In this document: one piece after another, positions 51,815 to 53,357 of the stretch
Layout: each line of letters opens with the position of its first letter
Numbering within the stretch: the first letter of the stretch is position 1
Assembly (NCBI RefSeq): GCF_057098645.1
Contig: NZ_CM169472.1
Reading direction: 5' to 3' (one strand)
DNA length: 64,000 nt
The notes under the pieces: generated by a model
What the model was told of the DNA's origin: nothing
Seen by the model: the letters and a program-made list of their open reading frames with translations, nothing else
Database searches by the model: none
Made by a program: the position numbers and the translations under genes

Positions 51815-52450
51815 ATGCGTCTGACAGCAAAACAGGTGACATGGCTGAAAGTTTGCCTGCATCTTGCCGGATTGTTGCCGTTTCTCTGGCTGGTCTGGGC
51901 GATCAATCACGGTGGACTGGGTGCCGATCCGGTGAAAGATATTCAGCATTTTACCGGTCGCACTGCACTGAAATTTTTGCTGGCGACCTTGTTAATCACA
52001 CCTCTGGCACGCTACGCAAAACAGCCGTTATTGATACGCACTCGCCGCCTGTTAGGATTATGGTGCTTTGCCTGGGCGACACTGCATTTAACAAGTTACG
52101 CATTGCTGGAGCTGGGCGTGAATAATCTGGCGTTATTAGGTAAGGAGTTAATTACCCGGCCTTATTTAACGTTAGGTATTATCAGCTGGGTAATTTTGCT
52201 TGCTTTAGCGTTCACTTCAACCCAGGCGATGCAGCGAAAACTCGGCAAGCACTGGCAACAGTTGCATAATTTCGTCTATCTTGTCGCGATCCTGGCCCCA
52301 ATACATTATCTGTGGTCAGTGAAGATTATTTCACCGCAGCCGCTCATCTACGCTGGGCTGGCTGTACTGCTTTTAGCCTTACGGTATAAGAAGTTGCGTT
52401 CCCTTTTTAACCGGTTACGCAAGCAGATTCACAACAAATTATCTGTATAA
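51815..52450 (+). CDS. msrQ: Haem-binding membrane subunit MsrQ (YedZ)
   Basis: 211-aa polytopic membrane protein, translationally coupled to msrP. Confidence 0.85.
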
Positions 52451-52649
52451 CTTCATATTGCCGACAAAGTACGCGTTATCCCTGCCGGATGTGGCGCTAG
52501 CGCCCTATCCGGCATACACAGATCGCATCAGGTTATGTTTCGTTTGTCATCAACCTCAAATCACCAAAATAATTTATTTTATTTCAATAAGATAGATAAG
52601 TAGAACTGAGAAAGCCATGCTCTCGTTTCCTAAGAGTTGTTGCATTTTG

Positions 52650-52672
52650 CTATATGTTACAATATAACATTA
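52650..52672. promoter_or_regulatory. Candidate Zur operator upstream of zinT
   Basis: TATGTTACAATATAACATTAC, a near-palindrome resembling the Zur box (GAAATGTTATAWTATAACATTTC), about 35 bp upstream of zinT. Confidence 0.45.
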
Positions 52673-52706
52673 CACATCATATACATTAACTCTGGAGGAA
52701 ACTGTT

Positions 52707-53357
52707 TTGGCGATTCGTCTTCACAAACTGGCTGTTGCTTTAGGTGTCTTTATTGTTAGCGCTCCTGCCTTTTCGCATGGTCATCACTCACACGGCAAAC
52801 CCTTAACAGAGGTCGAACAAAAAGCTGCTAATGGTGTTTTTGATGATGCCAATGTACAAAACCGAACGCTCAGTGACTGGCATGGAGTCTGGCAATCCGT
52901 TTATCCTTTACTGCAAAGTGGCAAACTTGACCCCGTCTTTCAGAAGAAAGCGGATGCAGATAAAACTAAAACATTTGCTGAAATTAAAGATTATTATCAC
53001 AAAGGTTATGCAACAGATATCGAGATGATTGGCATTGAGGACGGCATTGTTGAATTCCATAGAAATAATGAAACAACATCCTGTAAATATGATTACGATG
53101 GATACAAAATACTCACCTATAAATCAGGCAAGAAAGGCGTTCGTTACTTATTCGAATGTAAAGATCCTGAAAGCAAAGCCCCTAAATATATACAATTTAG
53201 CGATCATATAATTGCACCACGAAAATCATCTCATTTTCACATTTTTATGGGTAATGATTCACAGCAATCTTTATTAAATGAAATGGAAAACTGGCCAACG
53301 TATTATCCATATCAGTTGAGTAGCGAAGAAGTGGTCGAGGAAATGATGTCTCATTGA
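52707..53357 (+). CDS. zinT: Periplasmic zinc/cadmium-binding protein ZinT (YodA)
   Basis: 216-aa ORF with signal peptide and His-rich N-terminus (HGHHSHGK). Confidence 0.85.

Follow-up and report, generated by a model that had tools for sequence, protein, structure and literature searches.

The zinT locus and its intergenic region

The DNA analysed here is a stretch of 64 kb, called the window throughout, in which the gene order hiuH-msrP-msrQ-zinT-yodB matches that of E. coli K-12. RefSeq annotation of identical or near-identical DNA names the gene under study metal-binding protein ZinT, and nucleotides 52760-53357 have 100% identity to the annotated zinT of the O145:H28 strain RM9872. The coding sequence and its ribosome-binding site lie as follows:

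52707..53357, + strand: zinT coding sequence, 216 aa, TTG start (open reading frame list and RefSeq annotation)
52694..52698, + strand: zinT Shine-Dalgarno GGAGG, 8 nt before the TTG (from the sequence)

The TTG start is kept in Escherichia, Citrobacter, and Lelliottia, while the GGAGG is constant in all E. coli haplotypes examined and reads GGAGA in E. albertii. Residue 6 of ZinT is H in the window and Y in K-12.

The msrQ-zinT intergenic region (259 nt plus the start codon) is identical to that of K-12 MG1655 except for one base, a T instead of a G at position 52497, which falls within a REP palindrome. This REP element occupies 52449-52514, includes a 16-nt inverted repeat at 52483-52514, and gave a sub-threshold, REP-derived Rfam match to naRNA4 over its whole span (52449-52514). 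The zinT locus of the window differs from that of K-12 in the prophage or island that follows yodB.

A Zur-box-like palindrome in the zinT promoter

The first-pass annotation had reported a Zur-box-like palindrome in the zinT promoter at 52650-52672. The palindrome is indeed present, its 19-bp box lying 36-54 nt 5' of the zinT TTG start; the site itself is real, whereas its interval had been set 3 nt early and 1 nt short, as the 21-mer cited for it, TATGTTACAATATAACATTAC, was located at 52653-52673. It can be described as a 17-nt near-palindrome with its dyad centre at A52662 and with the arms ATGTTACA (52654-61) and TATAACAT (52663-70), which are complementary at 7 of 8 positions, C52660/A52664 being the sole mispair. 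The core TGTTAYAWTATAACA was found by a pattern search of the 64-kb window as a single occurrence with zero mismatches; a generic inverted-repeat finder, in contrast to the pattern search, did not return the palindrome.

Published descriptions of the Zur box can be laid over the site in the following registers:

52653..52671: 19-bp Zur box core in the 9-1-9 register, TATGTTACAATATAACATT, centre A52662
52651..52673: gamma-proteobacterial Zur consensus GAAATGTTATANTATAACATTTC in the 23-bp register, 18 of the 22 specified positions matched
52655..52674: structure-based 20-bp two-dimer Zur box TGWNAYRWTATAWYRTNWCA, 20/20 positions matched, central TATA at 52663-52666

Against the 19-bp consensus AATGTTATAWTATAACATT, the box at 52653-52671 matches at 17/19 positions. 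The TGWNAYRWTATAWYRTNWCA match at 52655-52674 is the only one with 0 mismatches within the window, and since this pattern was partly derived from zinT itself (one of three sequences), the match is circular: its 20/20 establishes that the DNA is that of the published operator but adds no independent support.

The operator (52651-52674) thus fits two dyad registers that are 2.5 bp apart, one odd (9-1-9, centred on 52662) and one even (structure-based, with its centre between 52664 and 52665). A 26-nt weight matrix in the structure-based register behaves in the same manner, as it scores nearly equally when displaced by 5 bp on the zinT operator (14.7 vs 15.6 bits). Operators of the Fur family are typically built from overlapping repeats, and the double register is a reflection of this.

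Scoring against independent Zur sites

Position weight matrices (PWMs) were built in symmetrised form from the K-12 znuA/znuC, ykgM, and pliG operators, with zinT left out. The 26-nt PWM in the structure-based register (three sites) placed the zinT site first in the window at 15.6 bits, a score that is only marginal window-wide, being reached in 21 of 300 simulated windows, and matrices of 23 nt and 19 nt with independent sites took its place. The 23-nt odd-dyad PWM (K-12 znuC, ykgM, and pliG; zinT excluded) gave 24.1 bits at 52651-52673, with the next best position in the window at 12.3 bits and 0 matches in 3 Mb of simulated sequence. The 19-mer PWM was made from five validated sites, i.e., the K-12 ones together with two DNase-footprinted Yersinia pestis sites, again with zinT excluded. 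Of the 30.1 bits attainable, the zinT site at 52653-52671 obtained 25.6; the next best position of the window had 9.6 bits, and simulated sequence (Markov-1, 5 Mb) rose to no more than 18.2 bits. In leave-one-out scoring, the five training sites obtained 16.4-22.9 bits, and the zinT site exceeds all of them.

The first-pass annotation had named a low Zur weight-matrix score as what would speak against its reading; instead, the site is the top match of the window by a wide margin under matrices that exclude zinT. No second Zur-box candidate was found within the 64-kb window, from which the zur gene is also absent.

Conservation of the box

The 51 bp around the site were identical at ≥ 99% in only 524 of 4797 matching genomes, so this segment is non-uniform across E. 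coli. Twelve other E. coli haplotypes were compared, seven of them taken from the 51-bp search and five chosen by divergence of the zinT coding sequence alone. Across 52560-52706, 42 of 147 positions are variable among these haplotypes, and none of the 19 box positions varies as opposed to 42 of the 128 outside (Fisher one-sided p = 0.001), a contrast to be read with the bias towards conservation that comes from seven of the 12 haplotypes, and likewise all four cross-genus orthologues, having been found by box-containing queries. The longest invariant run, 25 nt at 52653-52677, spans the box, and the bases just upstream of it (52648-52652) vary freely among E. coli haplotypes. Relative to its flanks, the zinT Zur box therefore appears to be under purifying selection.

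A plain-DNA scan for ATGTTAYAWTATAACAT with one genome per species returned at least 120 loci. Among the 120 loci listed, 44 have a homologue of ZnuA, ZnuC, ZinT, or L31B starting ≤ 400 nt downstream of the motif, and four of these 44 are zinT orthologues (E. albertii, two Citrobacter, and Lelliottia). The distance from the motif to the zinT start is 39-45 nt in E. albertii, Citrobacter, and Lelliottia, i.e., the spacing is constant. The cross-genus promoter alignment is circular for the 17-bp core, as the loci were retrieved by that pattern, and what can be learned from it is limited to the spacing, the failure of the flanks to align, and a TTG upstream that never varies.

Relation to published Zur operators

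Because the intergenic DNA is identical to that of K-12 apart from the REP base, the site is the same operator DNA as the one treated in the literature. Compared with the K-12 PzinT operator, the promoter shows no sequence difference along its entire length, and the gene, the position, and the 20-bp box are held in common; nothing differs in the operator, and only the host strain is another one. Gilston et al. (2014, PLoS Biol; PMC4219657) solved the structure of a Zur-znuABC DNA complex, showed that two Zur dimers bind cooperatively to PznuABC, PzinT, and PL31p, and derived the box TGWNAYRWTATAWYRTNWCA. In the same work, Zur bound PzinT with an apparent Kd of 0.053e-18 M2 in a cooperative two-dimer EMSA, a Zur-protected stretch of about 30 bp is cited, and zinT was repressed 984-fold in vivo (RT-PCR, wild type vs zur deletion). 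In O157:H7, a zur deletion accumulates ZinT even with added zinc (Gabbianelli et al. 2011, PMC3053223). The Zur-regulated expression of zinT that had been proposed from the palindrome is thus borne out by binding and roughly 1000-fold repression on identical K-12 DNA (PMC4219657) and by the Zur dependence seen in O157:H7 (PMC3053223), and the comparison with characterised Zur operators that had been suggested along with it yields 20/20 positions to TGWNAYRWTATAWYRTNWCA and identity with the K-12 zinT operator. A literature search found no Zur ChIP-exo studies.

The segment 52653-52674 is almost certainly the operator through which Zur controls E. coli zinT. This operator is already known and was experimentally characterised in 2014, which makes the finding an ordinary one. 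Its Zur site was reportedly predicted by comparative genomics as early as 2003, and among the four Zur operators known in E. coli only one is bound more tightly. As the only Zur target in the 64-kb window it carries little weight as a discovery, and its value is that of a positive control, in which a reader who had only the sequence found a true regulatory site.

The E. coli znuA/znuC operator (crystal structure 4MTD) shares with zinT the 20-bp pattern, the RNNNY skeleton, the overlapping dimer sites, and the central TATA. Unlike zinT, it serves a bidirectional promoter, and it is bound by Zur about 150-fold more weakly and repressed about 7-fold as compared with 984-fold (PMC4219657). For the gamma-proteobacterial consensus GAAATGTTATANTATAACATTTC and the 19-bp box AATGTTATAWTATAACATT, the sequences used here are those given by PMC2706843 and PMC2895646, and the 19-bp 9-1-9 box AATGTTATAWTATAACATT is found also at ykgM and znuCB/znuA of Yersinia pestis (Li et al. 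2009, PMC2706843), where the Zur boxes were DNase-footprinted and overlap mapped -10 elements. The Y. pestis ykgM site GATGTTACATTATAACATA has in common with the zinT site an unusual C at position 8. The Yersinia work concerns other genes in another genus and reports no zinT target (PMC2706843).

Probable dimer contacts and mode of repression

The skeleton RNNNYRNNRYNNYRNNNY is satisfied from 52656, a match that is weak when taken alone (about 1/256 per position). By analogy with the Zur-znuABC crystal structure (PMC4219657), two overlapping contact elements can be assigned:

52656..52668: putative Zur dimer 1 element RNNNYxxxRNNNY, GTTAC-AAT-ATAAC (analogy with the Zur-znuABC structure)
52661..52673: putative Zur dimer 2 element, AATAT-AAC-ATTAC, overlapping the first (skeleton match and analogy)

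Under this assignment, dimer 1 (52656-52668) and dimer 2 (52661-52673) would share the central TATA. The promoter elements that may accompany them are all on the coding strand of zinT:

52655..52663, + strand: candidate extended -10 TGtTACAAT, inside the Zur box (promoter enumeration)
52663..52668, + strand: alternative candidate -10 TATAAC, inside the Zur box, 17 bp after TTGCAT
52640..52645, + strand: candidate -35 TTGCAT

The hexamer TACAAT agrees with the consensus at 5/6 positions and has a TG at -15/-14; promoter enumeration predicts from it a transcription start at ~52670 and a 5'UTR of ~37 nt. The TTG of TTGCAT is invariant in the zinT promoters of Escherichia, Citrobacter, and Lelliottia. 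A consensus promoter scan of the intergenic region placed no promoter over the box and returned only an upstream pair, TTGTCA-18-AATAAT (52544-52573).

Since each of the two plausible -10 hexamers falls within the box, and since Zur boxes in Yersinia lie over mapped -10 elements, promoter occlusion is the most likely mode by which Zur represses zinT, the overlap with the -10 being itself predicted from the sequence. Under zinc sufficiency, the ~20-bp AT-rich box at 52653-52674 is occupied cooperatively by two Zn-loaded Zur dimers on opposite faces of the DNA, each of which would read one RNNNYxxxRNNNY element, with the elements overlapping at the central TATA. Bound Zur would cover the candidate -10 hexamers and keep RNA polymerase off, and zinT is repressed about 1000-fold; under zinc depletion Zur loses its regulatory zinc and leaves the DNA, and the periplasmic zinc-scavenging ZinT is made.

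Alternatively, the Zur operator might act as a roadblock downstream of an upstream promoter, with no occlusion of a -10 element. TTGTCA (52544-49) and AATAAT (52568-73), separated by an 18-nt spacer, form the sole 10/12 consensus promoter in the intergenic region, and the AT-rich block at ~52569-52595 beside this pair is conserved in E. coli and E. albertii. However, one or two such promoter-like matches are expected by chance in the msrQ-zinT region (shuffle mean 1.2), and the region upstream cannot be aligned in Citrobacter or Lelliottia, where the distance from the box to the zinT start is fixed. Both TGtTACAAT and TTGCAT-17-TATAAC sit on the box, and the boxes at the mapped Yersinia promoters overlap the -10 (PMC2706843), all of which runs contrary to a roadblock. 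We consider this arrangement unlikely and retain promoter occlusion as the probable mode.

The AT-rich block itself, AATAATTTATTTTATTTCAATAAGATA at 52569-52595, lies 5' of the Zur box and differs little between E. coli haplotypes, all of which agree at 52569-52574 and 52581-52595; it is nearly conserved in E. albertii, where its flanks have diverged. It overlaps the -10-like AATAAT of TTGTCA(52544)-18-AATAAT(52573), and could be a second promoter or the site of another regulator.

Other readings of the palindrome

A Fur (iron) box in place of a Zur box would have a similar appearance, given that Fur and Zur are paralogues with similar AT-rich operators and that the zinT palindrome is an AT-rich inverted repeat; the Fur box GATAATGATAATCATTATC has the AT-rich dyad in common with the Zur box and represses by promoter occlusion, the probable mode at zinT as well. 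The gene yodA/zinT was also tied to Fur in older work, and its cadmium induction is said to depend on fur and soxS, a finding ascribed to Puskarova in 2002. Nevertheless, the best match to GATAATGATAATCATTATC anywhere upstream of zinT is 11/19, a level equalled or bettered at ~390 positions of the window, so that a Fur box at zinT was rejected as a background-level match, the site differing from a true Fur box in this sequence match (≤ 11/19) and in its metal signal, which for Fur is iron and not zinc. The central TATA is moreover specific to the Zur box and missing from the Fur consensus (PMC4219657). That Fur and not Zur is the cognate repressor is very improbable.

To the same slight degree we credit a chance AT-rich palindrome, or a mere -10 region with no dedicated repressor, for which the shortness and AT-richness of the repeat and its position over -10-like hexamers could be adduced. 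Against this stand a PWM score that is reached nowhere in the 5 Mb simulation, a box that is invariant between variable flanks, a motif that is tied to zinc-uptake genes across phyla (among the loci listed), and the published EMSA and RT-PCR results on identical DNA, which contradict it directly (PMC4219657). Least credible of all is an RNA hairpin in the zinT leader (an attenuator or stability element), which was rejected because, even if any inverted repeat can in principle fold, the segment 52640-52706 has a minimum free energy of -3.9 kcal/mol, weaker than the shuffled mean of -6.28 (z = +1.1) and matched or surpassed by 180 of 200 shuffles, Rfam has no family over the Zur box, and the likely transcription start is at or 3' of the palindrome.

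A ZntR half-site downstream of the Zur box

The sequence ACTCTGGAG at 52689-52697 reproduces exactly (9/9) the left half of the ZntR operator of K-12 zntA, ACTCTGGAGTCGACTCCAGAGT; it is situated 15 bp 3' of the Zur box and shares bases with the Shine-Dalgarno of zinT. It is constant in all 13 E. coli haplotypes examined, has one mismatch in E. albertii (ACTCAGGAG), and is lacking in Citrobacter and Lelliottia. A full 22-bp ZntR (MerR-type) operator ACTCTGGAGTCGACTCCAGAGT was rejected here, as the half-site has no dyad partner and the overall match is 13/22, a level equalled or exceeded at 26 positions of the window.

PMC11618457 (2024) describes a 'through-DNA' ZntR-assisted unbinding of Zur at Zur promoters, zinT included, reports that the timing of zinT derepression is altered by zntR status, and counts zinT as one of the promoters in which partial recognition sequences for ZntR overlap the Zur box. 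In the window, the exact half-site lies downstream of the Zur box and does not overlap it. It is most likely coincidental, and that ACTCTGGAG is a docking point for apo-ZntR which speeds Zur release at zinT, and not simply a by-product of the Shine-Dalgarno, strikes us as quite improbable.

The rest of the window

Colinearity with K-12 stops at 54861, inside the serU of K-12, and ARAGORN found no intact tRNA in the interval 50-64 kb. Beyond 54861, and in agreement with O145:H28 RM9872 as far as 57733, there are T3SS effector genes of the nleF/nleH type, followed by open reading frames of IS3-family transposases (57.7-60.0 kb) and then by terminase and lysis gene fragments. The best match of the window to the Fur-box consensus, CAAAATGATAATAATTATC at 61687-61705 (16/19), is found here in degraded prophage DNA, ~230 nt upstream of an open reading frame that resembles a lambdoid terminase small subunit (60951-61460, minus strand). 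As a whole, 54861-64000 looks like an effector-carrying prophage remnant at serU that was broken up by IS elements.
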